Assembly (NCBI GenBank): GCA_039029375.1
Contig: JBCCGH010000020.1
Span: 26,409-50,408 of the forward strand
Source: Planctomycetota bacterium
Lineage (GTDB): Bacteria; Planctomycetota; UBA1135; UBA2386
Length of the DNA stretch: 24,000 nucleotides
Direction: 5' to 3'
How positions within the stretch are numbered: the first letter of the stretch is position 1; each line of letters begins with the position of its first letter. Below, one piece after another: positions 6,295-23,385 of this stretch. The position numbers were made by a program, and so were the translations under genes. Below the pieces are notes generated by a model that did no database searches, was not told where the DNA came from, and saw only the letters and a list, made by a program, of their open reading frames with translations.

Positions 6295-7329
6295 CTATCG
6301 CCTCCTGTCCTCTAACTGGACGACCTCTCCGGTCGGTTTCTCCAGGCTCGCTGCCATGCCCTTCAGGGAGCTGGGCGCGAGATGCGCATAGCGCTCAGTC
6401 ACGTTGATGGTCGAGTGCCCCAGCCACTCCTTCACGAGGTAGAGATCGTGCCCGGCCTGAACCAGCCGGCTCGCGGTGGTGTGCCTGAGGGTGTGCAATG
6501 AGACATCCGGCAGCCCGGCCGCATTGCGGACCTTCGTGAACCTCTTCACGCACCACGACTTCGCACTGTCGCGCCGTGTGACGCTCGTGCGGACGCCTCG
6601 GGTGATCTCCAGCCACTCAGGGGTCACATGCAGACATCGCAGCGAGGCGGCCGCACGGGACGTCAGGGGCACGTTCCGGCTCTTGCCGTTCTTGGTGTCC
6701 TCCAGCCTCAGGTCGCCTCCTACGACGTCGCTGGGGCGGCTCTTGGTGATCTCCGAGAGTCGCGCGCCGGTGTCCAGCAGGACACACACGAGGTGATAGA
6801 TCGTAGGACTGATCTCCATCGCCTTGGCGAGGATGATCTGTTCCTCGTCGGCGTCGAGGTAGCGGACCTTGGTGTTGTTGACGGAGATGGTGGGGAAGGG
6901 AGGCTTGGAGGCGAGCTTGCGGCGCTTCACGGCGTGGTCAAGGGCGACCGACACGACGCCGAGGCGGGTGCGTATGGTGGCCGCCGCTAGGCCCTGCCCG
7001 CGTAGCTGGTTCACCCACTCCTCCAGCCAGATGTAGTCGATGGCTGTGCACTGCAACGAGCCGAACTGCTCGCGGATCACGCCGACGACATAGGAGAGCT
7101 GCTTGGCTCCCTTCTGCCGGTCCCACCGTGCGCGCCAGGTGTCGTCCAGCGCTTCCGCAAGGGTGTATCCGAGTGACGTCGAGCCCCGCCCGGCGAGAAT
7201 CTCCTGCGCGGCCAGTTGGGCCTCGCCCTTGTCCCGCTTTCCGGTGCTGATTCGGCGGCGCTTGCCGGACGTCGGGTCCGTGAAGGACAGCATGTAGATG
7301 CCATCCCGAGCCCGTGGTGTAAGCCTCAT
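6295..7329 (-). CDS. int: Tyrosine recombinase / phage integrase
   Basis: 344 aa with the catalytic signature: TGARLSEI (Arg), HTLRHTTASRLV (H-x-x-R) and GHSTINVTERYAHL (Tyr). A GGGAGGTGAGAC ribosome-binding site precedes the ATG. Confidence 0.95.
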   Translation of the reverse strand: MRLTPRARDGIYMLSFTDPTSGKRRRISTGKRDKGEAQLAAQEILAGRGSTSLGYTLAEALDDTWRARWDRQKGAKQLSYVVGVIREQFGSLQCTAIDYIWLEEWVNQLRGQGLAAATIRTRLGVVSVALDHAVKRRKLASKPPFPTISVNNTKVRYLDADEEQIILAKAMEISPTIYHLVCVLLDTGARLSEITKSRPSDVVGGDLRLEDTKNGKSRNVPLTSRAAASLRCLHVTPEWLEITRGVRTSVTRRDSAKSWCVKRFTKVRNAAGLPDVSLHTLRHTTASRLVQAGHDLYLVKEWLGHSTINVTERYAHLAPSSLKGMAASLEKPTGEVVQLEDRRR

Positions 7330-7332
7330 GTC

Positions 7333-7680
7333 TCACCTCCCGAGTATTCTCGTGATCTTGTTGGCGAGCTTCTCGCCGGTTTTGGTCAGGACCATCACCT
7401 TGCGGCGGCGATCCGAGTAGTCGGCCCGAGAGGTGACGAGGTCAAGTCCCGGTCGGTTCTTGTAGCTCCACTCGCCGATCGCGCCGAGAGCACGGCTACA
7501 GGCTGCCGAGGTGAGTCCGCTGGATTCCTGAAGGGCGCGGACGTCCACCTCTCTGTCCGTCGCCTGGGCTTCGGCGATGTGTAGAAACAACTGCACGTTG
7601 TGAAGAGGTGCTTCCCTCTCCATCTCCTCGCATAGCGTGTCGATCAGCTTCCTTGCTGTCTGTATATCTGACTTGTCCAC
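7333..7680 (-). CDS. MarR-like winged-helix transcriptional regulator
   Basis: 115 aa. The pattern VDVRALQESSGLTSAACSRALGAIGE ... SDRRRKVMVLTKTGEKL matches the MarR HTH plus wing (D-x-R-R-K ... LT-x-x-G). GTG start preceded by AAGGAG. It sits immediately upstream of int in the same operon. Confidence 0.65.
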   Translation of the reverse strand: MDKSDIQTARKLIDTLCEEMEREAPLHNVQLFLHIAEAQATDREVDVRALQESSGLTSAACSRALGAIGEWSYKNRPGLDLVTSRADYSDRRRKVMVLTKTGEKLANKITRILGR

Positions 7681-7724
7681 CAGTTTCGCTCCTTGGGGTC
7701 AGTCCGTGACTTCATATCTGCCAT

Positions 7725-7898
7725 TCAAGCGCGTTTTCCCTCACGCTTGCCATGAATTACGGAAAGTAGTAGGACACGCCTAAATGCGATCAATTCCCAC
7801 TCTCGGACTATACTGCCAGAATAATGACGACCTGTATATGTGGAACAATCGAACCAAACTTCGGCCGCTCCGGGCTCCAGATACCACTCGATCCGCAT
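7725..7898 (-). CDS. Possible small protein (57 aa), below the ORF-track size cutoff
   Basis: Hand translation gives MRIEWYLEPGAAEVWFDCSTYTGRHYSGSIVREWELIAFRRVLLLSVIHGKREGKRA. The ATG at 7898 is preceded by AGGAG 6 nt upstream. It is open for 57 codons in an AT-rich spacer where stops should be frequent. I recognise no homology. Confidence 0.3.
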   Translation of the reverse strand: MRIEWYLEPGAAEVWFDCSTYTGRHYSGSIVREWELIAFRRVLLLSVIHGKREGKRA

Positions 7899-7973
7899 GT
7901 GAAACTCCTGTTTCTTTCAGAAGTGATCTGCGATCCATCGCCTAGTCCTCTCACTTTGTTGACTCAATACATG

Positions 7974-8002
7974 AAAAAAAATAGGCACCCCGAAGGGGTG
8001 CC
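7974..8002 (-). terminator. Rho-independent terminator ending the long accessory operon
   Basis: The minus-strand RNA reads GGCACCCC-UUC-GGGGUGCC followed by UAUUUUUUUU, about 16 nt after the stop of the 401-aa gene. A second hairpin (ACACGCCG/CGGCGUGU) spans the stop codon itself. Confidence 0.85.
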
Positions 8003-8018
8003 CGGAAGACACGCCGGA

Positions 8019-9224
8019 TTACGGCGTGTTGTCGATGACGCGGTGGTTCGGGAAGCGGACCTCCGCCAGCGTCTCCCCTCCCTGGGGGCGCTCGTCAATC
8101 TGGTCGCGGTCGCACGGCGCGGTGCGCATGTCGTGCTCGGTGCCATCGATCATCTCGAAGTCCGCCCAAGTTGGCAGACCAGGGTAGAACCACAGCGCGA
8201 AGGCGTTGAAGTTCGCCAGAGAGGACCACTTGGTGTCCCGCCCGACGTCGTTCATCGAGGGAATCTGCTGGTCCCCCGTGGTGCCGTCGATGTGGTAGAA
8301 CCCGTATGTCTTCATCGCCTGAAGCAGCGTGCGGGTGTGCTCCGTGCCGACGCCGGTGACGTCGAAGTCGGCCCGCAGGCGGAACCGCGCGCCGTACGGC
8401 AGGAAGCCGCCGGTGTCGTACTGGAGCGGCGAATGCTGCCCCGGCTCGATGAACTTCCAGCCCTCAGGGACGTCGTTCGGGAGCGTCATGGCGACCGCGT
8501 GGTTGATCTCCTGCGCGGCGAAGTCCTCCGCCGTGACGACGAACGGGGCGTACTCCGCGCCCGCCGCGTTGGGAGACGTGCAGCCCAGCCCACGACCGAC
8601 ACTCGCGGCGCTTAGGTCGTAGATCGCGGAGTTGCCGATGGTGATCTGCGAGAAGTCGCCCGTCTCGTAGTTCTGGACGAGGTACAGCTCCCGAAGGACG
8701 GGCGCGGTCGGGTCGCTCAAGTCCACCACATAGAGGTGGTTGTCGGCGGACTGGCCGAACTCCTGCACGGCGAACGTCGGATGGTAAGGCACCTGAACGT
8801 AGTCACTGTGCGGGTCGTAAGGGCCGTCCAGGTTGTACCCACTGGGTACACCCCACGTCACCTCGCTGGCGATCTCCGGCGTGATGACGTTGACGATGTG
8901 CCCGTAGCGGCCTTCCTCGGTCGCCGTGTCCTGCGACAGGTTGAAGTCCAGCCGGGGGAACCAATACTGACCACCGGAGCCGTCGAGGCCCCAGTTGTGG
9001 TCCCGCACGAGCGCGGTCTGCATCTGCGCCATGATGGCTGCCGAGTTCGGGTGAACGGGAAGGTCCGTGACCGGCGTGTTGTACCAGCTATCGGGGTGTC
9101 CGATCGTGCGTGCCAGCGCGGCAGGCGGATCGGTCGGATCAATGGGAGTCCCGCCGGCTTCTTCCAGCAGGACATTCAGGCGAGCCACCAGTTCGTTGAT
9201 GGCGTTTACTCGTAGTGTGGTCAT
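8019..9224 (-). CDS. Hypothetical 401-aa protein, possibly a virion-associated or polysaccharide-active enzyme
   Basis: Long ORF with an ACGGAG ribosome-binding site. The short helical N-terminus (MTTLRVNAINELVARLNVLLEE) resembles the N-termini of the neighbouring large protein and of the second fibre protein. No catalytic motif is recognised with confidence. Confidence 0.75.
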   Translation of the reverse strand: MTTLRVNAINELVARLNVLLEEAGGTPIDPTDPPAALARTIGHPDSWYNTPVTDLPVHPNSAAIMAQMQTALVRDHNWGLDGSGGQYWFPRLDFNLSQDTATEEGRYGHIVNVITPEIASEVTWGVPSGYNLDGPYDPHSDYVQVPYHPTFAVQEFGQSADNHLYVVDLSDPTAPVLRELYLVQNYETGDFSQITIGNSAIYDLSAASVGRGLGCTSPNAAGAEYAPFVVTAEDFAAQEINHAVAMTLPNDVPEGWKFIEPGQHSPLQYDTGGFLPYGARFRLRADFDVTGVGTEHTRTLLQAMKTYGFYHIDGTTGDQQIPSMNDVGRDTKWSSLANFNAFALWFYPGLPTWADFEMIDGTEHDMRTAPCDRDQIDERPQGGETLAEVRFPNHRVIDNTP

Positions 9225-9238
9225 TGCGACTCCGTGGG

Positions 9239-11143
9239 TCAGGCTGCGGCGGGGGCTGCGCCGAGTTCGGTCCAGCGCGTGGGGAAGGCCATGAAGGCGT
9301 GGTCGGTTCCTTGGTCAGAGATGACCGCGAACCATGCGTCCTCCGAGGCGTACTTGACGCCCTGCGGCGTCTCGACTTCCTCGTTGGGGATGAGCACCGG
9401 GTGCGTCGCGCCGTGGCTGAAGTTCGTACCGCCGGGCGGGACAGTCGCCTCCGGCGTGACTCCGTCAGGATTCCACGGGTTCACCATGCAGGTGCCTTCC
9501 CAGTGGCGTGCAGTGCCGTTGTAGTAAGTGTTCTCGGGCCGCTGGAAGTCCAACATCTGACCGTATAGGCCCTGAAGCCCTTGGCCCATCTTGGCCGCGT
9601 CCCAGTCAGTGTGTGGGACGTATGGCTTGCCGTCGCTGGCCCGGACACCCGGCCGCGTGTAGCAGTCCGGCTGGCGGAAGCCAATGCCCGGCTGGGAATC
9701 AGCGAACGCGAGGATTTTCGCGGTGCGTGATGCGATGACGTCCGGGTCGCTGCCCAGTCCATTCGCGGGAAGTTGCAGCCAATATTCGCCGCCGCGCTGG
9801 TTGATCTCGCCAGTGAGGTCGAGAAGGTAGTCGAGGTAGCGATCGAAGCCGCTGTCAACGCCGATCGTGCCGGTGTTGTAGTTGGCGTCGTTGTAGGCGT
9901 TGTCCTGCGTGCTGCCGGGACTGCCGAGAGCCAGTTCGCCCTTGAAGCCGATGGACTCCACCATAGGTTGCGTATCGGCCCACTCCGCGAGGCGGATCGC
10001 CACGGCGCGGAAGCGATTGCGGACAACGGTGCCGGCGGGGGTCGTGTCCCACAGCCGCGCGAGGGCGCGGTTCTTGCCGGTGGTGCGAACGAACCAATGG
10101 ACTGAGTTCGGATCGCCAGCGAGGTCCGACGGGACCGCCATGATGGGGTTCGACGGAGTCTCAGGGAAGACACCCGCGAACTGGTTGTTGGCCTGCGGAT
10201 CAACAACGACGGACACGAGGTAGCCGCTGTCGATGTATGCCTGAATGACACCCGTGAACAGCTCGTTCGGGACGCGCTCAAGCTCGCGCCAGTTGAACCG
10301 GAGGCGGACGCCCTTGACGTAGGGCAACCAGCGATCCTCGGCGTACCATCGGCTTGAGATGCGAGCCAGGGTTTCCTCATAGGTGGGGAAGTCGAGGCTG
10401 CCCCAGTTGGTCTCACCGTTGGCCCAAAGGCCGGGGTTCCAGCGGAAGGTTCGCGGGCCGCCGCCGACTGGGACTTCCGCCACCGGCGCGGTCGGATCGG
10501 AGCTGAGACTCTCGGCGTTCCCTTGGCCGTCGGTGAAGGCGGTAGACACGCGGAGCGCTTGGCCGACATCCGCCGCTGAAGTCTGATAGCTCGCCGCAGT
10601 CGCGCCGGAGATCGGCGTCGAGTCGGTCGCGCCATACCACCACTGGTAGCTCAGCGGGCCGACGCCTTCGGCGTCCTGCGCGTCTACCGTGGCGGTCAGA
10701 AGGACGCCGGCGGTGGGGTTCAGGTCGTCAATGGTGACGGTCCCGGTGGCAGGCGTGTTCTCGCGACTAACGGGCGCAGTGTCGGCCGACTCACGGACGT
10801 AGGCGTTACCCTGGCCGTCGGTGAAGCTCGCAACCACGCGCAGCGCGAAGCCTTCGTCAGAGGGCATCACTACATACGTCGAGGCGGTGCCGCCGGGGAT
10901 GTCTTGGCCGGCTCGTTGCCAGCGGTAGGTGATACCGGCGGGGATACCGTCGGGATCGTAGATGGTCGAAATAACGGACAGCGTTTCGCCTACGCGTGGG
11001 GCGGTGTTGCTGACCCGCACGGTGCCGGTCGGAAGGGTATCTCCGATGGGATCAGGTGCCGGGTTCGACTCACTGTAGATGTCAGTGCGTCGGAGTTGCC
11101 GGAGAATCCCAAGCACCTCTAGGTTGAGGTCTCGATTGGACAT
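9239..11143 (-). CDS. 634-aa protein with two tandem Ig-like repeats and a large C-terminal enzyme-like domain; candidate tailspike or depolymerase
   Basis: Two internal repeats of about 85 aa are visible (GTVRVSNTAPRVGETL...YRWQRAGQDIPGGTASTYVV...FTDGQGNAYV and GTVTIDDLNPTAGVLL...YQWWYGATDSTPISGATAASYQT...FTDGQGNAESL). About 400 aa of non-repetitive sequence follow. The enzyme function is inferred, not shown. Confidence 0.75.
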   Translation of the reverse strand: MSNRDLNLEVLGILRQLRRTDIYSESNPAPDPIGDTLPTGTVRVSNTAPRVGETLSVISTIYDPDGIPAGITYRWQRAGQDIPGGTASTYVVMPSDEGFALRVVASFTDGQGNAYVRESADTAPVSRENTPATGTVTIDDLNPTAGVLLTATVDAQDAEGVGPLSYQWWYGATDSTPISGATAASYQTSAADVGQALRVSTAFTDGQGNAESLSSDPTAPVAEVPVGGGPRTFRWNPGLWANGETNWGSLDFPTYEETLARISSRWYAEDRWLPYVKGVRLRFNWRELERVPNELFTGVIQAYIDSGYLVSVVVDPQANNQFAGVFPETPSNPIMAVPSDLAGDPNSVHWFVRTTGKNRALARLWDTTPAGTVVRNRFRAVAIRLAEWADTQPMVESIGFKGELALGSPGSTQDNAYNDANYNTGTIGVDSGFDRYLDYLLDLTGEINQRGGEYWLQLPANGLGSDPDVIASRTAKILAFADSQPGIGFRQPDCYTRPGVRASDGKPYVPHTDWDAAKMGQGLQGLYGQMLDFQRPENTYYNGTARHWEGTCMVNPWNPDGVTPEATVPPGGTNFSHGATHPVLIPNEEVETPQGVKYASEDAWFAVISDQGTDHAFMAFPTRWTELGAAPAAA

Positions 11144-11194
11144 TACGCAATGTTTCCTTTTGGGAAAAGGAGGGGAGGGTTCGGACGAGTGGTT

Positions 11195-11288
11195 GCCTCA
11201 TCAGCGACCGGGGACCACCCGGCCGGACGCTCACACCCCCGAAGTCAGCGAAACTTCTAGGAGGGCGTGGGGGCGTGAGCGTTTCGGC
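11195..11288 (-). ncRNA. Hammerhead ribozyme, type II topology (stem II open)
   Basis: Minus-strand RNA from 11288 to 11195 reads GCC-GAA-ACGCUCACGCCCCC-[ACGCCCUCCUA GAAGU UUCGCUG ACUUC]-GGGGGUGUGAGCGU-C^CGGCCGGG-UGGUC-CCCGGUCG-CUGAUGA-GGC. The full core is present: CUGAUGA, GAA, the A15.1-U16.1 pair, the G10.1-C11.1 pair and C17 in a GUC triplet. Stem III has 14 bp and stem I has 8 bp. The open stem II has only 3 bp (GGC/GCC). Confidence 0.8.
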
Positions 11289-11289
11289 T

Positions 11290-11484
11290 TTACTGATAGT
11301 CCTCCACCAGCTCGCCATCAGCGTCGAAGATAGCTGCGGCGTGTAGAGGAGAGTTGGAGTAGGCGAGGGCGGCTCCATGAGCGAGCGTGTGGTGATCGAA
11401 TACACCTTCGAGCGTGATCGAGTTGTCGGTGTCCACCGGAGCATGGGCCAGGCGGACCTTCACGGTGTAGGACGTGGGGTTCAT
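11290..11484 (-). CDS. Hypothetical 64-aa protein
   Basis: ORF with a GAGGAGAA ribosome-binding site upstream of the ATG. Its TAA stop lies 2 nt before the type II hammerhead. Confidence 0.6.
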   Translation of the reverse strand: MNPTSYTVKVRLAHAPVDTDNSITLEGVFDHHTLAHGAALAYSNSPLHAAAIFDADGELVEDYQ

Positions 11485-11577
11485 CGTGCAGTTCTCCTCG
11501 TGTGTTCAACTTCAAGTAATTCATCCGGTTGACTTTCGGTTTCCCTGAGCCACCGGAGGAGTGCGGAGATTTGGCAG

Positions 11578-11859
11578 TTAGTCATTGAAAACCACCTCGC
11601 CGTTGTCGTCGTAGCGCTTAAGGGTTTCTTGAAGTTCGCCGTAGGTGGGCATTGAGTCTCCGGTCGCGTTGCCTAGTTCTTCGTGGAGCCTTGCCCCAAG
11701 AAGCGATAAGCTATGCCGGCTAGCCTGCCCGCTACACCTATCGATACTGGTGAGGTAGTCGCCCACCGCACAAGTGCTCCACATGGCATGATTAATACGG
11801 CACGCTGGCGGCTGCGCGTTCACGAACTCACGGAAGCCCGCAAGGGTTGGTTCAGTCAT
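11578..11859 (-). CDS. Hypothetical 93-aa protein
   Basis: Its ATG overlaps the stop of the pentapeptide-repeat gene (ATGACTGA, an 8-nt overlap), implying translational coupling. Confidence 0.6.
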   Translation of the reverse strand: MTEPTLAGFREFVNAQPPACRINHAMWSTCAVGDYLTSIDRCSGQASRHSLSLLGARLHEELGNATGDSMPTYGELQETLKRYDDNGEVVFND

Positions 11860-12604
11860 CGTCTTGTCCCTCCTGCGCTTCTAGCTTGGTCTTCAGCCAT
11901 TCCACCGCATAGACGTACATGTCGCCTATCGCACGGTCGCCTACGTAGCCCCTGCCCCAATGGTCGAGTGCTTCGGGGATCGTGAAATCTCGGCAGCCAG
12001 ACCGGATGCGGTACTCGCCGTCGATTTCTACCGCGTGCGGGAAGGCGTACCCGCGAGGGTCTTGAAGGGGTAGCAGATAGAAGCCTTTTGCATCGATCAG
12101 GTTTGCACCGCGCAGGTTTGCATCGATCAGGTTTGCACCGATCAGGTTTGCACCGCTCAGGCTTGCATCGCTCAGGCTTGCATAGCGCAGGTTTGCACCG
12201 CGCAGGTTTGCATCGCTCAGGCTTGCATAGCGCAGGTTTGCACCGCGCAGGTTTGCATAGCGCAGGTTTGCACCGCGCAGGTTTGCATCGCTCAGGTTTG
12301 CATCGCTCAGGCTTGCACCGCTCAGGCTTGCACCGCTCAGGAGTGCACCGCTCAGGCTTGCATAGCGCAGGCTTGCATAGCGCAGGTTTGCACCGCGCAG
12401 GCTTGCACCGCTCAGGCTTGCACCGCTCAGGAGTGCACCGCTCAGGCTTGCATAGCGCAGGCTTGCATAGCGCAGGTTTGCACCGCGCAGGTTTGCATCG
12501 CGCAGATCTGAACCGCTCAGGTCTGCACTGCGTAGGTTTGCACCGCGCAGGTCTGCATCGCGCAGGTTTGCATCGGGGCCTATGTCATATCCGTTAACTT
12601 TCAT
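11852..12604 (-). CDS. Pentapeptide-repeat protein with a non-repeat C-terminal domain
   Basis: About 32 consecutive A(D/N)LxX pentapeptides (ANLRDADLRGANLRSADLSGSDLRDANLRGANLRYASL...). The C-terminal domain follows (GFYLLPLQDPRGYAFPHAVEIDGEYRIRSGCRDFTIPEALDHWG). I start it at ATG 12604 (MKVNGYDIG), preceded by GAGGAG, not at the TTG at 12622. Confidence 0.9.
   Translation of the reverse strand: MKVNGYDIGPDANLRDADLRGANLRSADLSGSDLRDANLRGANLRYASLRYASLSGALLSGASLSGASLRGANLRYASLRYASLSGALLSGASLSGASLSDANLSDANLRGANLRYANLRGANLRYASLSDANLRGANLRYASLSDASLSGANLIGANLIDANLRGANLIDAKGFYLLPLQDPRGYAFPHAVEIDGEYRIRSGCRDFTIPEALDHWGRGYVGDRAIGDMYVYAVEWLKTKLEAQEGQDDD
12311..12490. repeat. Perfect 90-bp tandem duplication inside the pentapeptide-repeat gene
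   Basis: Base-by-base comparison shows 12311-12400 is identical to 12401-12490. Each copy encodes 30 aa, which is six pentapeptide units. It lies within a 15-nt periodic coding repeat spanning about 12088-12570. Confidence 0.95.
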
Positions 12605-12707
12605 CGTCTTGTTTCTCCTCAAGTCGTCGTAACGTGACCTTCACCAGCACCCCCAACGCGATCAGCGCGAGGATGCCGGGGAGGTGTTGGATTAGTTGTG
12701 CTGTCAC
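12594..12707 (-). CDS. Possible 37-aa single-pass membrane peptide, not in the ORF track
   Basis: Hand translation gives MTAQLIQHLPGILALIALGVLVKVTLRRLEEKQDDES. The GTG start sits immediately after the upstream TAA (TAAGTG), and the 3' end overlaps the pentapeptide-gene ATG by 11 nt. There is no clear Shine-Dalgarno. The call is supported mainly by analogy to the three membrane-peptide genes at 16.1-16.9 kb. Confidence 0.3.
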   Translation of the reverse strand: MTAQLIQHLPGILALIALGVLVKVTLRRLEEKQDDES

Positions 12708-13190
12708 TTACAGCGTTGCATTCGCCAGGACGGCCCCACGCCGCTCACCACCCGCGACAAACTCCCGCACGAACTTGCGTTGGTCTGTAGGAAACCGCCC
12801 ATGGCGGTTGTGGTAGATCGACTGTCCGGCTGTGTCGGCAGTGATGATTGCGGCCGCTTCGTCGGCGAACACACCAAGACTGTCGAGAACGCGCCGGGCG
12901 TGTTCGCTGGCGGTTGCTATCTCGCCCTCGAAGTCAGTGCCATAGTCGTGGGCAAGGTGAATAGCGTCATGCCACGCGCGAAAGGCGACGTTAGTTGCGC
13001 GGTCGCGGTAGATGGTTTGCTCGCAGTGGTCGCCGCTTACGGGCAGCGAATCAACACCTAGGATGTTGCCCTCGTCTCGCCATGCTTTGAGTTCAGCAAA
13101 CGTGTCCGGCGCATTGGGTGAAATGTGATGCTTAGGCGCTTGCGCGTGGATGAACTGTTCAAGCGCCTGTAGTGCTGTTTGTGGTCGCAT
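12708..13190 (-). CDS. Hypothetical 160-aa protein
   Basis: I start it at ATG 13190 (MRPQTALQALEQF...), which has AGGAGG 8 nt upstream. The ORF-track start at 13211 lacks a ribosome-binding site. It is the first cistron after the type III hammerhead. Confidence 0.7.
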   Translation of the reverse strand: MRPQTALQALEQFIHAQAPKHHISPNAPDTFAELKAWRDEGNILGVDSLPVSGDHCEQTIYRDRATNVAFRAWHDAIHLAHDYGTDFEGEIATASEHARRVLDSLGVFADEAAAIITADTAGQSIYHNRHGRFPTDQRKFVREFVAGGERRGAVLANATL

Positions 13191-13223
13191 TGAGTTGCCC
13201 TCCTGAGGCATTCGGTCTGTGCT

Positions 13224-13274
13224 GACGTTTCGTCCTTTCGGACTCGTCAGGCCCGGTGCACACCGGACGACGTC
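13224..13274 (-). ncRNA. Hammerhead ribozyme, type III topology (stem III open)
   Basis: Minus-strand RNA from 13274 to 13224 reads GACGUC^GUCCGGU-GUGC-ACCGGGC-CUGACGA-GUCC-GAAA-GGAC-GAA-ACGUC. All conserved core nucleotides are present: C3 U4 G5 A6 N7 G8 A9, G12 A13 A14, A15.1-U16.1, G10.1-C11.1 and C17 in GUC. Stem I has 7 bp, stem II has 4 bp with a GAAA tetraloop, and stem III has 5 bp. Confidence 0.85.
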
Positions 13275-13333
13275 GAGTGTCCCGCAAGTGAAGCACTACG
13301 GGACATGTGGAAGTAGATGGACGCGGCTATGCC

Positions 13334-13756
13334 TCAGCGAACCCAGTAGGTAACACCGTCGAAATCAATCGCTGAGTAATCGTATTGAAGATGCTGCGCG
13401 GCACGCGTCCAATCAATGCAGTTGTTCGGCCACGTCACATTGCTATCAATCAGGCCGCAGTCTTCCGCAAGCTGCTCTGCGTACTCTTCAAAGTAGCTAT
13501 CTCGAACCAGCGCTTCGCCGTGTACCCAGTCTGCCGCGTAGTCTTCGCCCTCGGCGGCGAGCGCTTCGAGCGCATCCAGTTCGCACCCTTCGTCGGTGTG
13601 GGCGTTGTGCCAGTCCACCTCGGGAGCCATATCAAACTCGCCACCGTTCTCCACGACTTCGTCAATCCAGTCGTCCCGAATTTCGCGGAGTTCTTCGATA
13701 CGCTCAATAACGTCGCGGCTATCAATCACGTCGTCCATGTTGGAAATTGCGTTCAT
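13334..13756 (-). CDS. Highly acidic ArdA-like protein (putative antirestriction DNA mimic)
   Basis: 140 aa from ATG 13756, which has a GGAGGT ribosome-binding site, and very rich in Asp/Glu. The C-terminal part YFEEYAEQLAEDCGLI...CIDWTRAAQHLQYDYSAIDFDGVTYWVR resembles, from memory, the ArdA C-terminus (...YFDYEAYARDLFLDSFTFIDGHVFRR). The N-terminal half does not resemble ArdA domain 1. Confidence 0.55.
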   Translation of the reverse strand: MNAISNMDDVIDSRDVIERIEELREIRDDWIDEVVENGGEFDMAPEVDWHNAHTDEGCELDALEALAAEGEDYAADWVHGEALVRDSYFEEYAEQLAEDCGLIDSNVTWPNNCIDWTRAAQHLQYDYSAIDFDGVTYWVR

Positions 13757-13968
13757 GCTGCTACCTCCGCGCGTCGTAATTCCGACCGCCACGCCTGTCC
13801 GCGCCAGCCGTCTTGGGCCTCGATCTCGTACATACCCTCGCCTTCGTAATCGAACTCATCCTTTCTAAGACGCCGCAGAACGCTGATGCGCTTGCCGCGA
13901 TGCGCGTTGTACTCAGGCAGGGATGTGAATCCCTCGGGGTAGTCGAATATGTAGTCGAATTTCCTCAT
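13753..13968 (-). CDS. Hypothetical 71-aa protein
   Basis: An AGGAGGG ribosome-binding site precedes the ATG. Its stop overlaps the ArdA-like start (ATGA). It is the first cistron after the long leader. Confidence 0.6.
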   Translation of the reverse strand: MRKFDYIFDYPEGFTSLPEYNAHRGKRISVLRRLRKDEFDYEGEGMYEIEAQDGWRGQAWRSELRRAEVAA

Positions 13969-13969
13969 C

Positions 13970-14021
13970 GTGTTTCGCCCTCCTAAGGCACATCAGTACG
14001 GCTGGAAGTAGCCGCAGACAC
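13970..14021 (-). ncRNA. Hammerhead-like motif (type III architecture) with U instead of A at core position 9
   Basis: Minus-strand RNA from 14021 to 13970 reads GUGUC^UGCGGCU-ACUUCC-AGCCGUA-CUGAUGU-GCC-UUAGGAG-GGC-GAA-ACAC and is followed by G-AUG of the 71-aa gene. Stem I has 7 bp, stem II has 3 bp with the Shine-Dalgarno in its loop, and stem III has 4 bp. GUC, GAA and the A15.1-U16.1 pair are all present. Only A9 deviates (plus-strand base 13990). Confidence 0.45.
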
Positions 14022-14224
14022 TTTCCCGCAGCCGCTGTCACTATCCGTCCTGATGTGGACATGTGGAAGTGTCGGCGCGGGCCTCGGTGTGTGTCGCTGA
14101 ACGCCTCGCCTGCTAGGGTTCGCAGGGTCTCAGGGTGCGGACTCTTTTTGACTGTGGACCGGCTGGGTCGCTGCGCTGTCTCGGGGAGTCGTTCCGATGC
14201 GCCGTTAGTGGCGACTTAAAGAAA

Positions 14225-14253
14225 AGCTTAAATAATTCCACATGCAGTGTCAA
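14225..14253 (-). promoter_or_regulatory. Sigma70-type promoter flanked by CATGTGG(T/A)A operator-like repeats
   Basis: On the minus strand, TTGACA (14253-14248) is followed by a 17-nt spacer and TAAGCT (14230-14225). CATGTGGTA lies immediately upstream of the -35 box and CATGTGGAA lies inside the spacer. Confidence 0.5.
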
Positions 14254-14283
14254 TACCACATGCGGAATTAATTAAGATTCTCC

Positions 14284-14790
14284 CTAGCGAGTCGCTACCA
14301 GGCTGCCGATGGCGTTGCCGCCTACGCCGGTCACTACGTGAGACACACGCGCTACAGTGAGCGCGTGGTGTAGTGTGGTACCGGGTTTCCTCATGCGCCT
14401 CGTGCAGGCCGCCCATTGACTCTTAGAGAGACCATAGCGCTCTCGGAGTTCAACGGAGGTGATCGTATCGCCGGGCTTCATGGTCTCGATGTGGGACGCT
14501 ATGAGGTCCGAGGGGCCGCCTTTGCGAGCACGCGGGATGTGCTGTAAGGGGCTGGTAGGTGGCGGCTCTGCGGCCATTACTGGAACTCCCACGGACGAAT
14601 CGACGGAGCCAGTAGAGTTGTTGCCTACAGCAATGTCGTAGATGTTGTGGAGGTCAAACCAGAGCATGTCCGTGTCTATCGGACGCTGCTCGTCTTCTGC
14701 ATGAAGGTTGCGTATGTACGCTGAGATTGTCGCTAAGCGTTGTGCGGGAGACAGGGATGGAGAAGGGCGCAGGGTTGCGTAAGTGTTCAT
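14284..14790 (-). CDS. Hypothetical 168-aa protein with a possible C-terminal helix-turn-helix
   Basis: ORF downstream of the 14854-14882 promoter. The segment ITSVELRERYGLSKSQWAACTRRM looks HTH-like. The ribosome-binding site is weak (TAGGA). Confidence 0.55.
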   Translation of the reverse strand: MNTYATLRPSPSLSPAQRLATISAYIRNLHAEDEQRPIDTDMLWFDLHNIYDIAVGNNSTGSVDSSVGVPVMAAEPPPTSPLQHIPRARKGGPSDLIASHIETMKPGDTITSVELRERYGLSKSQWAACTRRMRKPGTTLHHALTVARVSHVVTGVGGNAIGSLVATR

Positions 14791-14853
14791 GGTGTTGGTC
14801 CTAAGTTGCCGGGCAACGCCCCGGAGCGCGTGACTTTCCTAAGCCACGAGAGA

Positions 14854-14882
14854 ACCATACTCCCTACGTTTTGTTATGTCAA
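14854..14882 (-). promoter_or_regulatory. Sigma70-type promoter
   Basis: On the minus strand, TTGACA (14882-14877) is followed by a 17-nt spacer and TATGGT (14859-14854). It lies in an AT-rich spacer directly upstream of the 168-aa gene. Confidence 0.55.
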
Positions 14883-14887
14883 GCATA

Positions 14888-15088
14888 TCAAATATCTTTT
14901 TCCACGGCGGAGTTGAGCCGGGCAGTCACCCACTCGGCTAGCTTCATGTTTTCTGCCTTGGCTGCCCTAGTCCACGCCACTTTTTCCTCGTGAAGGCATC
15001 GGACATATAGCGTTGAACTGCGGCGTTCCTCAGGCGGCTTCTTAGCGTTCTGGTTGCCGGTGTTCCCGTGCTGCTTTGAGTCATCCAT
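14888..15088 (-). CDS. Small ribbon-helix-helix-like DNA-binding protein (candidate regulator)
   Basis: 66 aa. A basic N-terminal tail is followed by a beta-strand/helix/helix pattern (STLYVRCLHEEKVAWTRAAKAENMKLAEWVTARLN), reminiscent of Arc/CopG-type folds. A candidate own promoter has TTGCGG (15155-15150), a 16-nt spacer and TATTAT (15133-15128). Confidence 0.5.
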   Translation of the reverse strand: MDDSKQHGNTGNQNAKKPPEERRSSTLYVRCLHEEKVAWTRAAKAENMKLAEWVTARLNSAVEKDI

Positions 15089-15174
15089 TGTCTTACCTAC
15101 TGTGGCCTGAGCCTATCAATCAGGTAGCATAATACAGCAAGGAAAAAGTTCCGCAAGTGGAATAATCAAAACAA

Positions 15175-15483
15175 ATGGATTTAAAACTGATTGTGGTTGC
15201 CGGGACATTACTGGCCGGCTGCTCCGAGCCTAGCCCCTATGAGATATCCAGTTCGGGCTCAGGGACTGGGCAGGCGGCCTGGATACTGAACAAGCGCACG
15301 GGAGCTGTGAGGGCGTGCCTGCTCGACCTGCAAAGACAGTCTTCCCGTTTGCCCTACCTTACCGACGAGAAAGGCATTGCCTGCACTGGATGGGCCAACC
15401 CAAAGACACAGCGCGAGCAGGCGCAGGAGATTCGCGAGTTGATCCGAGAGACCGAAAGGGAAAAGCATCAGGGTTCCCCTTAA
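15175..15483 (+). CDS. Lipoprotein; the only plus-strand prophage gene, candidate moron
   Basis: The signal peptide has a lipobox (MDLKLIVVAGTLLAGC). It is divergent from the RHH-like gene and flanked by low-GC sequence. The Shine-Dalgarno is weak, which lowers confidence. Confidence 0.55.
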   Translation: MDLKLIVVAGTLLAGCSEPSPYEISSSGSGTGQAAWILNKRTGAVRACLLDLQRQSSRLPYLTDEKGIACTGWANPKTQREQAQEIRELIRETEREKHQGSP

Positions 15484-15700
15484 GGGATCAAAACAGGAGG
15501 GAGGACAAGCGCGCGTGCTGTGTGGCGGAGCACGATAGGCACGCCAGATGATGCCTTACCGCATCCATTACCCGGCGCTAGGCACCGTGTGGTGCGGGCT
15601 GCGGGCGGATGGTGCCACGCATGGTGCCACGGGACGCCCCCGCCAGCGATCCGCAGGGGTACGGGGGGAATCGCGGCGGGCGGGGGTACGTAGTCAGCGC

Positions 15701-15943
15701 TTAGAGATCGGCGTCAGATATTTCGACTTCTTCCTCCAGGGCGAGGATGCGGTCGGAAAACCTCGGGCCACACTCGTGACACAGCACGAACATCCACCCA
15801 ATGTTCCCATTCGGCCACGGGCGGCCCGTCCTCGGGTTCTGCCCTGCGCCGTCTCCGTCATCCCAATCGTCGTAGTTCAGGTTCGCATCGTAGAACGTCT
15901 TGCTGCCACAGCAGTCGCACAGGTAGAAATCAGCTAGCGCCAT
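15701..15943 (-). CDS. Small zinc-ribbon-like protein (80 aa)
   Basis: Two Cys pairs are present (CDCCGSK ... CHEC). An AAGGGGG ribosome-binding site lies upstream of the ATG. Confidence 0.6.
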   Translation of the reverse strand: MALADFYLCDCCGSKTFYDANLNYDDWDDGDGAGQNPRTGRPWPNGNIGWMFVLCHECGPRFSDRILALEEEVEISDADL

Positions 15944-16103
15944 GTGGCCCCCTTGACTGGGCCAGATTGGATGGGTAGTTTATCATCTGTGGGCATACAT
16001 ACTCCTCAGGCCGCCTCAGGACCTCCCTGAGACGACTTCAAGTCAAACTAGTGGTTTTCCATGGGTAAGGCTTAACGCCTCTCTACGGGCTTCTCAGGCG
16101 CTC

Positions 16104-16232
16104 TCAGCGCCCCTCAGCAATCTGCTGCATATCCTCGTCCCACTTCAGGTACACCTTCAGGTTCCACAAGACGAGCCCGAAGAGCCAAAGGAGCTGCGCG
16201 AGGATGATGAGGACGTCGAACACCTCAGTCAT
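16104..16232 (-). CDS. 42-aa single-pass membrane peptide (cassette 3)
   Basis: MTEVFDVLIILAQLLWLFGLVLWNLKVYLKWDEDMQQIAEGR. The ATG is preceded by GGAGGTG and overlaps the upstream stop by 8 nt (ATGACTGA). The ORF-track version (69 aa) over-extends the N-terminus. Confidence 0.5.
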   Translation of the reverse strand: MTEVFDVLIILAQLLWLFGLVLWNLKVYLKWDEDMQQIAEGR

Positions 16233-16446
16233 CCGCCACCTCCAGTAGCTTGTCGATGACCACAAGCTCCTCATCAGGGAAGAAGCTGACAGCGGTATTC
16301 TGGCCGTCGGCAAGCCGCACGTAGCCTCGGGAGGTTAGCTCCGTCACGCGGAACGGGACTAAGGAGGAGAACTCTCCGCCACAGGAAGCGATTGCCATCA
16401 GGACCTGCGCGCCCACAGTCACCTCTTGGTTCAAAGCGTCACGCAT
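16225..16446 (-). CDS. Hypothetical 73-aa protein (cassette 3), paralogue of 16569-16799
   Basis: It shares MRDA..EV.VG..VL at the N-terminus and VV.D...EVAD at the C-terminus with the 76-aa neighbour. Confidence 0.6.
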   Translation of the reverse strand: MRDALNQEVTVGAQVLMAIASCGGEFSSLVPFRVTELTSRGYVRLADGQNTAVSFFPDEELVVIDKLLEVADD

Positions 16447-16576
16447 CAGGCTTCCCCTTCCAGTTCGCCCAAAGGCCCACCAACATGCCCACGAGGACCC
16501 ACCCGACGAGCAGCCCGTAGGCCACAGCCACCAGGATGATCGGGGTCAGGATCAGCAGGGCTATCCACTCAAGCAT
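16439..16576 (-). CDS. 45-aa single-pass membrane peptide (cassette 2), not in the ORF track
   Basis: Hand translation gives MLEWIALLILTPIILVAVAYGLLVGWVLVGMLVGLWANWKGKPDA. A GAGGAGGTG ribosome-binding site is present. The gene overlaps both neighbours by 8 nt (ATGCTTGA and ATGCGTGA). Confidence 0.5.
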   Translation of the reverse strand: MLEWIALLILTPIILVAVAYGLLVGWVLVGMLVGLWANWKGKPDA

Positions 16577-16799
16577 CCGCCACCTCCTCATCGTCCGTCA
16601 CGACGACGAACTGCGAGCGGTCCACGAGCCAGAATTGCCGCCGTCCAGCCGCCGACACGATCGGGGCGATCGGAGTGACCAAAATTGCCGTGCGTGGCTG
16701 CGCAGCCTCCACCCGTGCCGGCTCCAGAGCGTCGGTGCCAACCGAGGAGAAGAGTACGAGGTCGCCCACAGCCACCTCGCGTCCCATTGCGTCACGCAT
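16569..16799 (-). CDS. Hypothetical 76-aa protein (cassette 2)
   Basis: Paralogue of 16225-16446 (MRDAMGREVAVGDLVL...VVVTDDEEVADA). Confidence 0.6.
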   Translation of the reverse strand: MRDAMGREVAVGDLVLFSSVGTDALEPARVEAAQPRTAILVTPIAPIVSAAGRRQFWLVDRSQFVVVTDDEEVADA

Positions 16800-16914
16800 C
16801 GCGATCCTCCCCGTCTTTGTCCCGCTTCCCCCACCAGAGGCCGCCGAGGGCCGCCAGTAGCGTGAGGACGGCTTCGAGTAGCATCCCCGAGACGCCGTGT
16901 GCGTAGTGCTTCAT
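16792..16914 (-). CDS. 40-aa single-pass membrane peptide (cassette 1)
   Basis: MKHYAHGVSGMLLEAVLTLLAALGGLWWGKRDKDGEDRDA. The ATG at 16914 is preceded by AGGAGGTGGAGG. It overlaps the upstream stop (ATGA) and the downstream start (ATGCGTGA). I prefer this to the 160-aa ORF 16792-17274 in the track, which runs across two better-supported genes. Confidence 0.5.
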   Translation of the reverse strand: MKHYAHGVSGMLLEAVLTLLAALGGLWWGKRDKDGEDRDA

Positions 16915-17132
16915 GCCTCCACCTCCTGAAGCAGCGCCTCCTTCAGCGCGGCCTCGCCGGGGAAGGTGAACATGTACACACGCGTGCCGGAGGCGGGTTC
17001 GGCACGGAGCATGACGACCCGGTGGCCGCAGCAAGAGCAGGAAGTCCCGAAGCTGTGGGAGTCGAGGGCCTCCCAGCCAAACTGGTCGGCCACCTTCCCG
17101 GCCTCGATGTAGGTCATCGTGATGGCGGTCAT
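16911..17132 (-). CDS. Hypothetical 73-aa protein (cassette 1)
   Basis: ORF coupled by ATGA overlaps at both ends. Its C-terminus LLQEVEA resembles the LLEVADD and EEVADA ends of the other two cassette proteins. Confidence 0.55.
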   Translation of the reverse strand: MTAITMTYIEAGKVADQFGWEALDSHSFGTSCSCCGHRVVMLRAEPASGTRVYMFTFPGEAALKEALLQEVEA

Positions 17133-17329
17133 TCGTCACCTCCAGCGATCCGGCGGGCGCGCTCGGCTTCCATCGCCTTTGCCAAGCTGTAGGCGCACTG
17201 AGCCATGAGACGAAAAGCCGCTCCCTCAGGAAGAGAGGCATACACTGCAGGGAGGGCAGCCTTAGCGAAGTCATCGAGCCTGGCCTGCTTGGCCTCTTCA
17301 GTGTCAGGCATCAGTTGGGGTGTGCCCAT
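17129..17329 (-). CDS. Hypothetical 66-aa protein
   Basis: A GAGGAG ribosome-binding site precedes the ATG. It is the first cistron after the terL-downstream spacer. Confidence 0.55.
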   Translation of the reverse strand: MGTPQLMPDTEEAKQARLDDFAKAALPAVYASLPEGAAFRLMAQCAYSLAKAMEAERARRIAGGDE

Positions 17330-17488
17330 GTGTGGGTATCTCCTCAGTAGTAGGACAATTACTAGGCCAAGCCCTCAGCTCTCTTTAAGTACCCTTCAAG
17401 CTATCTTTAGGTATTACTTCAAGTAGTTACTCAGGGGATGGGACCTCAGCCTTCAGGGTGCTGCACTTACCTGGTCTGACCAATTCCC

Positions 17489-19207
17489 CTACCGCCTTCT
17501 GCCCCGCCTTCGGGCCTTTCCTACGGTGTTGCTGAAGACTCCACCGGCCCTGCACACGGAGGCGTGCCGGGCGAGTTCCTCGGCAAGGAGCTTCGCCTTG
17601 CGGGCGTCTTCCTGCTGCTCGGTGTCCACTCGGAGCCGCGACTGCCAGTACCCCACGGCCTCCGCCAGCACATCCACCCGGTCGTCATGTCGGAGAGACT
17701 GGCGGTCCTTGGTGATGTGGCTAAGCTGGTACAGTCCCGTCTTGGCGGTACGCTCGGCGTCGCTGTTCTGGAGCGCCACGCGGGAGTCGATCACGAGCCG
17801 ATGCTGATTTAGCACGGGCTCCAGCTTGTCGATGATCCTCCGCTCCTTCTGGCCCGTGACGGTGTACTCCTCAACGTGACATGGGTAGATGCTCGCCAGC
17901 ACGGGCTCGAAAAGCGCCTGGTACATGCCGGCACCGAAGTTCTTCTCGACCCCGATGTGGTTCACCCCGTGCTTCTTGGCGATCTTTGCCAGTGCTTCGA
18001 GGGTGTCCCGATCGTAGCCACCTTCCAGGCCGCCCCAGGCGATGAGGTACAGCATCGAGTTGAGCTGCTTGATGACCGCGTAGGCGGTCTCGTCTTCGCC
18101 GGTGCCGGATGGGTCGATGTGCATGGAGCACCCCTGGTACGGCACGAAGTCCTCGCTGCTGACCCACATAGGGCGGTGCAGCCGGTCGCCGTTCAGGCCG
18201 ACGTTGGGGATGTGCTCCACGACTTGCTGCGGCCCGGAGGCCCAGCTCATCTGGACGGGGCCGTTGGTGGGGTCCACGTCCATGCAAAGTAGGTCGGAGA
18301 TTCTTAGGGGGTACTTCAGGGCGTCACTGAGCGACGTGTCGAGCATGAACTGCAAGGCGAACCCTGAGCGCCCGTAGGACGTCTCGCGCTCGGCGAGGTC
18401 CATGTCGCTGAAGCGCGCCGGCTCGGTGGTGGTGCCAGCTAGCTCAGGCCGCTTCCCGAGCATCTGTGTGATGATCGGGGCCAGCCTTCCGTGGTACTTA
18501 TCGATGCCGTCAACGAAACCGTTGGTGAACCTCGCGGGCCACACGCGGACCTCGTAGCCGCGATCGGCGAGGTCGTTGTAGAGCGATTGCTCCACCTGAG
18601 GCGTGCCGAGGTAGACCACCTGTCCGCCCGGCTTCAGGACCGCGTCGAATTCCTTCACGAGGTCGCCGAGCTTCTCTCGCTGCTGCTCGGTGGCAGAGTT
18701 CGAGGGAACCTCGATGTCGTCCGCCACGATCGTGTCGGCACGGGAGCCAGTGAGCTGGCCGGTGATTCCGACTGACTTCACGGAGGGCGACTGGTCCGGG
18801 CGGGCCGGGCCGACGTCGAAGGAGACGTTGGACGTCCGCTGCTCATCCCGTGGTTCCAAGAATCGCAGGAACTCCACATCCGAGATGAGCCGCTTACAGA
18901 AGATCGAGAAGTCGTCCGCGCGCTTCTGCGAGGCCGAGACCACCATGATCTTCTGCTGCGGATCGCGGTACAACAACCACAAAACGTATGCGGCCGTGAT
19001 CCATGACTTGCCCACGCCCCGGAAGGCTTCGATGATGCGCCGCCTCGGGCCGTGCTGGAGGTACTCCCCGATGTCCGCCTGAATCCAGGTCAGCTTCGGT
19101 AGCCCGAGGTGCATCCAGATTGCCGAGGCGAACATGATGAAGCTGTCATGCATCCGCTTCTCGGACGGCTGAATGACCCATTCCGGGTACTTAGACGGTC
19201 TCGACAT
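17489..19207 (-). CDS. terL: Terminase large subunit (T7 gp19 / DNA maturase B type)
   Basis: 572 aa. It has a Walker A-like AFRGVGKSWITAAYVLW and long stretches matching T7 gp19 as I recall it (SFDVGPARPDQSPSVKSVGITGQLTGSRAD, DDIEVPSNSAT, YLGTPQ, GFALQFML and DPSGTGEDETAY). Confidence 0.95.
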   Translation of the reverse strand: MSRPSKYPEWVIQPSEKRMHDSFIMFASAIWMHLGLPKLTWIQADIGEYLQHGPRRRIIEAFRGVGKSWITAAYVLWLLYRDPQQKIMVVSASQKRADDFSIFCKRLISDVEFLRFLEPRDEQRTSNVSFDVGPARPDQSPSVKSVGITGQLTGSRADTIVADDIEVPSNSATEQQREKLGDLVKEFDAVLKPGGQVVYLGTPQVEQSLYNDLADRGYEVRVWPARFTNGFVDGIDKYHGRLAPIITQMLGKRPELAGTTTEPARFSDMDLAERETSYGRSGFALQFMLDTSLSDALKYPLRISDLLCMDVDPTNGPVQMSWASGPQQVVEHIPNVGLNGDRLHRPMWVSSEDFVPYQGCSMHIDPSGTGEDETAYAVIKQLNSMLYLIAWGGLEGGYDRDTLEALAKIAKKHGVNHIGVEKNFGAGMYQALFEPVLASIYPCHVEEYTVTGQKERRIIDKLEPVLNQHRLVIDSRVALQNSDAERTAKTGLYQLSHITKDRQSLRHDDRVDVLAEAVGYWQSRLRVDTEQQEDARKAKLLAEELARHASVCRAGGVFSNTVGKARRRGRRR

Positions 19208-19328
19208 GCGGATTAATCCTCAGATATGGGGATAGCAGCTCCGCACGCCCGGTCTCAGCCGTTTTTCAGGCGATCGAGTAGTAGCGGGTGGGTCAGACTT
19301 GGAGGGGCTCTACGGGGCTCTCAGGAGG

Positions 19329-23317: not shown

Positions 23318-23385
23318 TGAGTGGTCTCCGAGGGAATAGGGACGCCCGGCCTTGCACCGGGCGAGGAGAGGAGCCTGGGGAAGGC

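Follow-up and report, generated by a model that had tools for sequence, protein, structure and literature searches.

We analysed a window of 24,000 nucleotides (nt) of DNA from a Planctomycetota bacterium (GenBank assembly GCA_039029375.1, contig JBCCGH010000020.1, positions 26,409 to 50,408 of the forward strand; all coordinates below are those of this window), with a focus on a predicted type III hammerhead ribozyme on its minus strand at 13224..13274. The region 6295-24000 is a T7-like prophage, all of whose genes lie on the minus strand. Its T7-like traits include a tail-fibre N-domain and terminase genes of the gp18 and gp19 types, and genes for the capsid, tube, nozzle and gp14 are found farther upstream. 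The original prediction had placed a complete type III hammerhead between an ArdA-like gene and the next cistron, in a 143-nt spacer. This placement was supported, the two genes being part of a co-directional prophage gene array, and the spacer has exactly this length, from the stop codon of the ArdA-like gene (13336..13334) to the next ATG (13190). The name of the upstream gene also stood: it is assigned as ArdA-like by phrog_25535 and phrog_2059 ('anti-restriction protein'), by an identical protein of 140 amino acids (aa) at NCBI, and by PF07275 on its homologues. The immediate neighbourhood, in the order of transcription, is as follows.

13334..13756, minus strand: ArdA-like anti-restriction gene, the upstream cistron (140 aa from the ATG at 13756; the mechanically called open reading frame (ORF) extends to 13792)
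13224..13274, minus strand: type III hammerhead ribozyme (evidence: sequence, descriptor scan with shuffles, RF00008 and the family model R1, described below)
12708..13204, minus strand: downstream cistron (160 aa from the ATG at 13190; phrog_7806), with AGGAGG at 13204-13199

The minus strand from 13274 to 13224 reads GACGU-C/GUCCGGU-GUGC-ACCGGGC-CUGACGA-GUCC-GAAA-GGAC-GAA-ACGUC, where the slash marks the predicted cut. Its parts are listed below, with helix lengths in base pairs (bp).

13274-13270 / 13228-13224, minus strand: stem III, 5 bp, an open helix
13269, minus strand: C17 of the GUC triplet, with the predicted cut between 13269 and 13268
13268-13263 / 13256-13251, minus strand: stem I, 6 bp (7 bp if the inner U-A pair is closed)
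13262-13257, minus strand: loop I, the hexaloop UGUGCA
13250-13244, minus strand: CUGACGA (C3-A9), conserved core
13243-13240 / 13235-13232, minus strand: stem II, GUCC/GGAC, 4 bp
13239-13236, minus strand: loop II, the tetraloop GAAA
13231-13229, minus strand: GAA (G12-A14), conserved core

The core nucleotides C3, U4, G5, A6, N7, G8 and A9, together with G12, A13 and A14, are intact, and position 17 of the NUH triplet is a C, not a G. The pairs A15.1 (13228)-U16.1 (13270) and G10.1 (13243)-C11.1 (13232) are both present, and the type III topology is complete: loops cap stems I and II, and stem III is open. The minus-strand reading, the invariant nucleotides, the GUC triplet and the cut site of the original prediction were thus borne out base for base. 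Its helices of 7, 4 and 5 bp hold as pairings, but stem I is better read as 6 bp with the hexaloop UGUGCA. The AGGAGG sequence, which had been put at a distance of about 50 nt downstream, actually occupies 13204..13199, 20 nt past the 3′ end of the ribozyme and 64 nt past the cut.

To assess chance occurrence, we wrote our own type III descriptor and applied it to the window and to 2000 dinucleotide-preserving shuffles of the 24 kb. In the window, 13274..13224 was the sole match. A match of any kind with helices of at least 4, 3 and 4 bp appeared in 1 of the 2000 shuffles, and none had one at helix lengths of at least 7, 4 and 5 bp. The type III element is not a product of chance.

At Rfam's curated thresholds, the whole window yielded three tRNAs and a type II hammerhead (11289..11187), and the type III element was not called. 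The check suggested in the original prediction, a search with the Rfam type III model, was therefore equivocal when taken alone: in sensitive mode RF00008 (Hammerhead_3) does align to the element, but with 27.0 bits against a gathering score of 48.5. We then searched the viral contigs of IMG/VR; as the searches returned limited listings, the family counts given here are counts among the matches listed. With the core plus one half of stem II, CTGANGAGTCCGAAAGGACGAAAC, as the query, 19 contigs were retrieved, most of which carry type III hammerheads with a 6-bp stem I and a UGNGYN hexaloop. A wider pattern, in which GUC, the UGNGYN hexaloop and the core were fixed and all stems were left free, retrieved more than 120 contigs (L005-L136), and all three helices were formed in 130 of the 132 pattern matches. 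We aligned 98 distinct copies without gaps; standard pairs make up 94.3% of the cells, as compared with 65% after shuffling, and the covariation score is 0.795, as compared with 0.20 for the shuffled alignment and 0.07-0.12 for slid registers. The covariance model R1, which was built from these 98 phage copies with the window element left out, scored the window element at 64.4 bits (E = 1.2e-18), a value that lies within the 58-78 bits of the training members; extra copies in the same contigs that were not used in training scored 42-67 bits. By comparison, of about 35 clear type III copies in 13 phage loci, the RF00008 gathering threshold catches just one. Because it misses some 34 of these 35, the low RF00008 score reflects a limit of the Rfam model and is not a strike against the element. 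Judged by its sequence, the window element belongs to an abundant, phage-borne type III subfamily, and it is very probably a genuine hammerhead able to cleave itself.

The defining traits of the subfamily are a GUC site, 6 bp in stem I under a UGNGYN hexaloop, 4 bp in stem II with a tetraloop that is GNRA or AAAA, and 4-6 bp in stem III. The window copy shares individual features with many members: loop I is UGUGCA in 6 of them, loop II is GAAA in 24, the entire GUCC-GAAA-GGAC segment recurs in 11, and N7 is C in 15 of 130. It also shares an abutting upstream hairpin (see below) and a position between co-directional ORFs. It differs from the subfamily in its high GC content (0.64), in a gap of 3 nt between hairpin and stem III where the family has 0-2, and in an additional, alternative helix formed with its own core. 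Many family contigs hold 3-6 copies on one strand that bracket single genes (for example, L062 8490-12977), and the genes enclosed in this way are for the most part unknown or 'moron' genes of gamma-glutamyl-cyclotransferase-like type. Among the copies we also observed recurrent variants that combine a GUA triplet with a U10.1-U11.1 mismatch (CUGAUGA-UUCC-AAAA-GGAU-GAAAC; L062 10402-10454 and 11269-11321, L059 8120-8172, L078 8853-8905, and others), a mismatch already reported as tolerated (Perreault et al. 2011). As a separate observation, one contig carries the Rfam DUF805b motif (L005 3733-3765; 42.7 bits, the gathering score being 35.6) some 530 nt downstream from its phage type III hammerhead.

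The small loops had been taken to leave tertiary contacts 'not obvious', a view that did not hold up. In the conserved loop-loop motif, loop 1 is UNmYN, most often a UN3YN hexaloop, those closed by U...A being explicitly counted, and loop 2 is RNnA, most often GNRA or AAAA (Dufour et al. 2009, PMC2632901). At the level of sequence, loop I (UGUGCA) fits UN3YN and loop II (GAAA) fits RN2A; loop I has this sequence because the inner U-A pair of stem I is read as open. U13262 of loop I and A13236 of loop II would be placed for the conserved contact, which we infer for the window element. The element shares its topology and core with the viroid and satellite type III hammerheads of RF00008, of which sTRSV(+) has an identical stem II (GUCC/GGAC), and in hammerheads of the sTRSV(+) type a UGUGC... 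loop I and a GNRA loop II underlie the crystallographic loop-loop contact (PMC2632901). It differs from them in being DNA-encoded within a phage mRNA and not part of a rolling-circle RNA replicon, as well as in its RF00008 score of only 27 bits.

Immediately 5′ of the ribozyme, folding predicts a further structured element.

13278..13305, minus strand: stable hairpin, 12 bp with one bulge and a CUU loop, -16.5 kcal/mol

This hairpin (13305..13278) stops 3 nt 5′ of stem III, and once the RNA is cut, 9 nt would separate it from the 3′ terminus of the upstream fragment. It has counterparts throughout the family: 76% of 103 members have a hairpin with a strength of at least -10 kcal/mol in the 40 nt 5′ of stem III, as compared with 4% in the sequence downstream and 11% in an upstream control window, and the family hairpins nearly always abut stem III (gap of 0-2 nt). 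The distances to the neighbouring genes follow a pattern as well. In the family, the cut lies at a median of 38 nt past the stop codon of the preceding ORF, and the next start codon at a median of 32 nt past the ribozyme; the same measures in the window are 65 nt and 38 nt. Across many contigs, the sequence of the hairpin, and not only its structure, is conserved: a GGUGUCUUCAAAGACAC-like hairpin was seen before the ribozymes of L007, L009, L014, L019, L025, L032, L037, L040, L049, L062 and L075. Such conservation hints at a specific binding partner or signal. The idea that the upstream hairpins are the 3′ halves of tRNAs, which came from their UUCAAA loops, was abandoned, as ARAGORN detected no tRNA beside any hammerhead in 13 loci.

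The 3′ strand of stem III can also take part in a different structure.

13222..13250, minus strand: alternative hairpin, CUGACG (13250-13245) paired with CGUCAG (13227-13222), enclosing stem II

This pairing, which had been proposed as a possible basis of conditional cleavage, exists, and it cannot coexist with stem III and the active core. By nearest-neighbour calculation it gives the minimum free energy (MFE) structure, at -23.7 kcal/mol as against -21.3 kcal/mol for the hammerhead fold, and it is the MFE structure of the isolated element, of a 161-nt context and of the 3′ cleavage product alike. One could therefore imagine a regulatory switch, in which CUGACG/CGUCAG traps the RNA in an inactive fold until a ribosome, a protein or the kinetics of co-transcriptional folding favours stem III. 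The switch part of the proposal lacks comparative support, because of 106 family members just 1 has a comparable helix (at least 6 bp), close to the roughly 0.6% that chance would give. The MFE is, moreover, a poor guide to the hammerhead fold, since it misses stem III in 41 of the 106 members, and the gap of 2.4 kcal/mol leaves out the energy of the core and of the loop-loop tertiary contacts. As cleavage is irreversible, a small active population would suffice. The same hairpin, being the MFE structure of the 3′ product, might just as well come into play once the RNA is cut, where it would release the 5′ fragment and keep it from being re-ligated. We thus consider a conditional ribozyme unlikely; the alternative hairpin, if it matters, may act post-cut.

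The type III element is accompanied by two other hammerhead-related elements and by a repeated sequence, as listed below.

11187..11289, minus strand: canonical type II hammerhead (RF02276, 42.8 bits against a gathering score of 37; also matched by our own descriptor)
13968..14023, minus strand: hammerhead-like type III element in which U (13990) replaces A9, 0.75 kb upstream, predicted cut 14017/14016
13301..13314 and 14070..14057, minus strand: two copies of the exact 14-mer ACTTCCACATGTCC, at similar offsets

The type II element lies 2 kb downstream of the type III element on the same strand. It starts where a 64-aa ORF has its stop codon, and 44 nt separate its end from a 634-aa ORF that has Ig-like or tail-like matches; its predicted cut is between 11226 and 11225, its stem III carries a 41-nt insertion, and its loop I GUGGU is complementary to ACCAC just 3′ of stem II, which constitutes the classic type II pseudoknot. 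The core of the upstream element departs from the consensus only in A9U, the rest fitting the type III fold, and this change is absent from the family variants inspected. It scored 27.3 bits with RF00008 (match 14024..13967), below the threshold, and 26.7 bits (E = 2e-6) with R1. The AGGAGG of a 71-aa ORF (13984-13979) falls within its loop II and stem II, and the ATG of this ORF (13968) is 1 nt past its stem III. From its sequence, the A9U element may be a weakly active ribozyme or a degenerate, decayed copy, so that the window appears to hold two or three hammerheads around the anti-restriction gene.

The two copies of ACTTCCACATGTCC are situated 32 and 40 nt upstream of the predicted cuts of the two type III elements, and the copy at 13301..13314 supplies the 5′ strand of the upstream hairpin. 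Because ACTTCCACATGTCC is common to both, the two hairpin-plus-ribozyme modules are suggested to be paralogous duplicates; a MAFFT alignment of the two modules gave nothing informative beyond ACTTCCACATGTCC. We also noted that CUACUUCCA recurs in loop I of the A9U element. A different explanation of the 14-mer is that it represents an internal promoter of the phage or the host, situated some 35 nt before each type III element, and that the ribozyme serves to remove a variable 5′ leader. T7-like phages do use repeated promoter sequences, and the two exact copies at similar distances from the cuts would suit such a role. There are, however, only these two copies, neither of them near the type II hammerhead; ACTTCCACATGTCC is a hairpin strand, and the family hairpin is conserved as structure rather than as sequence; a sigma-70-like site was not called at ACTTCCACATGTCC; and a metagenome scan for its core together with the hammerhead core returned chance matches only. 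Leader trimming is accordingly, in our estimate, a little less likely even than the conditional ribozyme. The 14-mer might also serve as a binding site for a protein.

We propose instead that the element is a type III hammerhead of the phage subfamily that acts as mRNA punctuation, and we consider this, taken as a whole, the likely explanation. The observations behind it are the sequence itself, its agreement with a covarying family, a hairpin in common with that family and a position between genes; self-cleavage after C13269 and its consequences for the stability of the ends are what we infer from them. A polycistronic RNA would be made from the minus strand, in which the ribozyme would fold and cut itself after C13269. 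The upstream product, carrying the 71-aa ORF and ardA, would then have the 12-bp hairpin near its 3′ end and, beyond it, a tail of 9 nt bearing a 2′,3′-cyclic phosphate. An end of the hairpin type is expected to resist decay by bacterial 3′ exonucleases. The downstream product would start with a 5′-OH, followed by the compact body of the ribozyme, which ends 20 nt before the Shine-Dalgarno sequence of the 160-aa ORF, and a 5′-OH together with 5′ structure is expected to slow the 5′-end-dependent decay by RNase E. Together, the type III and the type II (11289..11187) hammerheads, and perhaps the A9U element, would cut the transcript into gene-sized mRNAs, whose stability and translation would be uncoupled without a host nuclease, much as is achieved by RNase III in T7 early mRNA. 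This role in punctuation and stability seems to us about an even proposition.

The comparison with T7 can be extended. The RNase III sites of T7 early mRNA are intergenic, one being beside the anti-restriction gene, and leave a hairpin at the 3′ end of the upstream product. By analogy, the window element would likewise occupy an intergenic position in a polycistronic T7-type mRNA, near an anti-restriction gene, and leave a hairpin 3′ end. The difference is that the T7 sites depend on a host enzyme, which generates 5′-phosphate and 3′-OH ends, whereas the window RNA would cut itself to give 5′-OH and 2′,3′-cyclic phosphate ends. A second parallel is offered by the RiboJ-type insulators, in which an engineered sTRSV hammerhead and a downstream hairpin cut off the upstream RNA and fix the 5′ context of the ribosome-binding site (RBS). 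Both would use a type III hammerhead to remove upstream RNA before an RBS, but RiboJ is engineered and has its hairpin downstream, whereas the hairpin of the natural module is upstream. We also entertain, tentatively and with clearly less confidence, a more elaborate version of mRNA punctuation. Here, the hairpin abutting stem III and the type III hammerhead would form a two-part module, arrayed in many phages as a host-independent replacement of RNase III sites, with the hairpin capping the upstream mRNA and the 5′-OH ribozyme body capping the downstream one. The A9U duplicate, which shares the 14-mer, would be an RBS-hiding leader, and CUGACG/CGUCAG would, after the cut, eject the 5′ product and block re-ligation.

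Several points weigh against mRNA punctuation by a functional ribozyme. As described above, the element remains below the RF00008 gathering score, and its nearest-neighbour MFE structure is the inactive alternative hairpin. The stability consequences are drawn from general knowledge of RNA decay, and the predicted change in accessibility of the Shine-Dalgarno sequence on cleavage varies with the length of the upstream RNA that is folded. The role of bacterial and phage hammerheads is still unsettled according to reviews (PMC6765202, PMC6155905). Finally, phage records, viral contigs, GTDB genomes and JGI metagenomes yielded no orthologue that varied in sequence. A long-range clamp between CUGAGGCAU, which lies over the ardA stop codon, and AUGCCUCAG, which overlaps the Shine-Dalgarno sequence, was seen in the 161-nt fold, but we did not adopt it: its duplex energy was no better than that of shuffled sequences (z = -0.8; 20 of 100 shuffles were as good), and it was not enriched in the family (mean z of 0.05).

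The search for orthologues was made at several levels. A blastn search against phages gave no match. The protein of the 160-aa ORF had no match in viral contigs, and its few homologues are without a ribozyme. In the closest ArdA-like homologues the next gene follows directly, with no ribozyme in between, and none of 92 ArdA-like loci has a type III copy. The scan of JGI metagenomes for the ACTTCCACATGTCC core plus the hammerhead core gave 20 matches, all attributable to chance. A second assembly (L137) is identical over the overlap and breaks inside the pentapeptide-repeat gene described below. Because this identical assembly was the only other copy found, and no variant orthologous copy, selection on the window copy is not demonstrated. 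The missing orthologue and the low RF00008 score might be taken to mean that the element is a chance motif or a decayed, inactive relic, and the A9U neighbour illustrates that hammerhead-like sequences can decay at this locus. We regard this as very improbable in view of the shuffles (1 of 2000 with even a loose match, none at the observed helix lengths), of the 64.4 bits obtained with the independent family model R1, and of the fact that the core, the two loops with tertiary motifs, the hairpin 5′ of the ribozyme and the position between genes are all intact.

The locus can be compared with the clustered hammerheads of other prophages. Bacterial hammerheads are often found near integrases in prophages, and it is common for several of them to lie around one gene or a short block of genes (Perreault et al. 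2011, PMC3088659). A triple arrangement in A. tumefaciens, which cleaves in vitro and in E. coli, flanks ardA; in three Legionella strains ardA follows a hammerhead; and clustered prophage hammerheads also occur in Azorhizobium caulinodans and Clostridium scindens (PMC3088659). The same authors proposed that these ribozymes process long phage transcripts; of the 18 consensus hammerheads that they assayed, 14 were active (PMC3088659). The clustered prophage arrangement recurs in the window, where the type II element, the type III element and the A9U variant are on the same strand, with the integrase at 7329..6295. In both cases, several same-strand hammerheads within a few kb bracket ardA and small unknown genes in a prophage, with tail, marR-like and integrase genes nearby, and long-transcript processing is the proposed function. 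The window differs from the published cases in that it comes from a metagenome-assembled genome labelled Planctomycetota and a T7-like phage, that it is known here from sequence, and that its type III element is downstream of ardA, its type II element four genes further, and its upstream element deviates in the core. It is a further example of the published arrangement of clustered hammerheads flanking ardA. Least probable of all is the excision of the 2-kb RNA 13268..11226 by the two ribozymes, with its 5′-OH and 2′,3′-cyclic phosphate ends joined by an RtcB-type ligase or by hammerhead ligation to give a circular or spliced RNA: same-strand ribozymes do flank a four-gene block, and the idea was raised in PMC3088659, but Perreault et al. 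sought such products and found none (PMC3088659), and nothing in the sequence would bring both ends together.

Hammerheads of other types also occur beside ArdA-like genes. A type I or II hammerhead was present on the ardA strand within 1.5 kb in 6 of the 92 ArdA-like loci (L151, L153, L154, L196, L199 and L216), as compared with about 0.4 expected from shuffles. In L196 the ribozyme begins 12 nt past the ArdA-like gene; the L199 ribozyme precedes its gene, with 20 nt between the two. Furthermore, Cellulophaga phage phi18:3 (NC_021794, ~21900-21990; L250 2990-3050) has an unannotated canonical type I hammerhead between gp050 and gp049, GAUUAA-CUGAAGA-GUCC-AGAA-GGAC-GAAAC-AAGG...CCUU-GUC-UUAAUC, which is 0.9 kb upstream of the annotated ArdA gene (gp045) on the same strand.

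The order along the RNA is: the A9U element, the 71-aa ORF, ardA, the type III hammerhead and the 160-aa ORF, followed by the pentapeptide-repeat protein gene, the 93-aa and 64-aa ORFs, the type II hammerhead, and the 634-aa and 401-aa ORFs. The remaining features of the transcription unit and its surroundings are as follows.

11852-12622, minus strand: pentapeptide-repeat protein gene, 256 aa, about 30 tandem 15-nt units
7983..8003, minus strand: intrinsic-terminator-like hairpin with a T-run
7329..6295, minus strand: integrase gene, beside three tRNA genes

As the hairpin at 8003..7983 is the sole such minus-strand site in 15200-7300, it probably ends the transcription unit that contains the ribozymes. 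Just upstream of the ribozyme-bearing gene block, the minus strand of 14025-14283 is a 260-nt AT-rich spacer, in which two direct repeats, GCATGTGG(T/A)ATT, flank TTGACA, giving it the look of an operator or promoter; a sigma-70-like site was called at 14882..14854. The 93-nt spacer between the 93-aa and 64-aa ORFs (11485-11577, minus strand) contains GGGAAACCGAAAGUCAACCGGAUGA and the hammerhead-like fragments GAAA, GUC and CGGAUGA (one mismatch to CUGAUGA); a complete motif was not found in it.

Taken alone, the window element is one further prophage hammerhead among thousands, and its context has been published before. The Rfam type III threshold missed this element as well as some 34 of 35 other copies, which means that routine annotation under-reports the phage subfamily. 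The recurrent layout of a hairpin, a hammerhead, about 30 nt and then the next gene offers a testable design for the question of what hammerheads do in bacteria and their phages.

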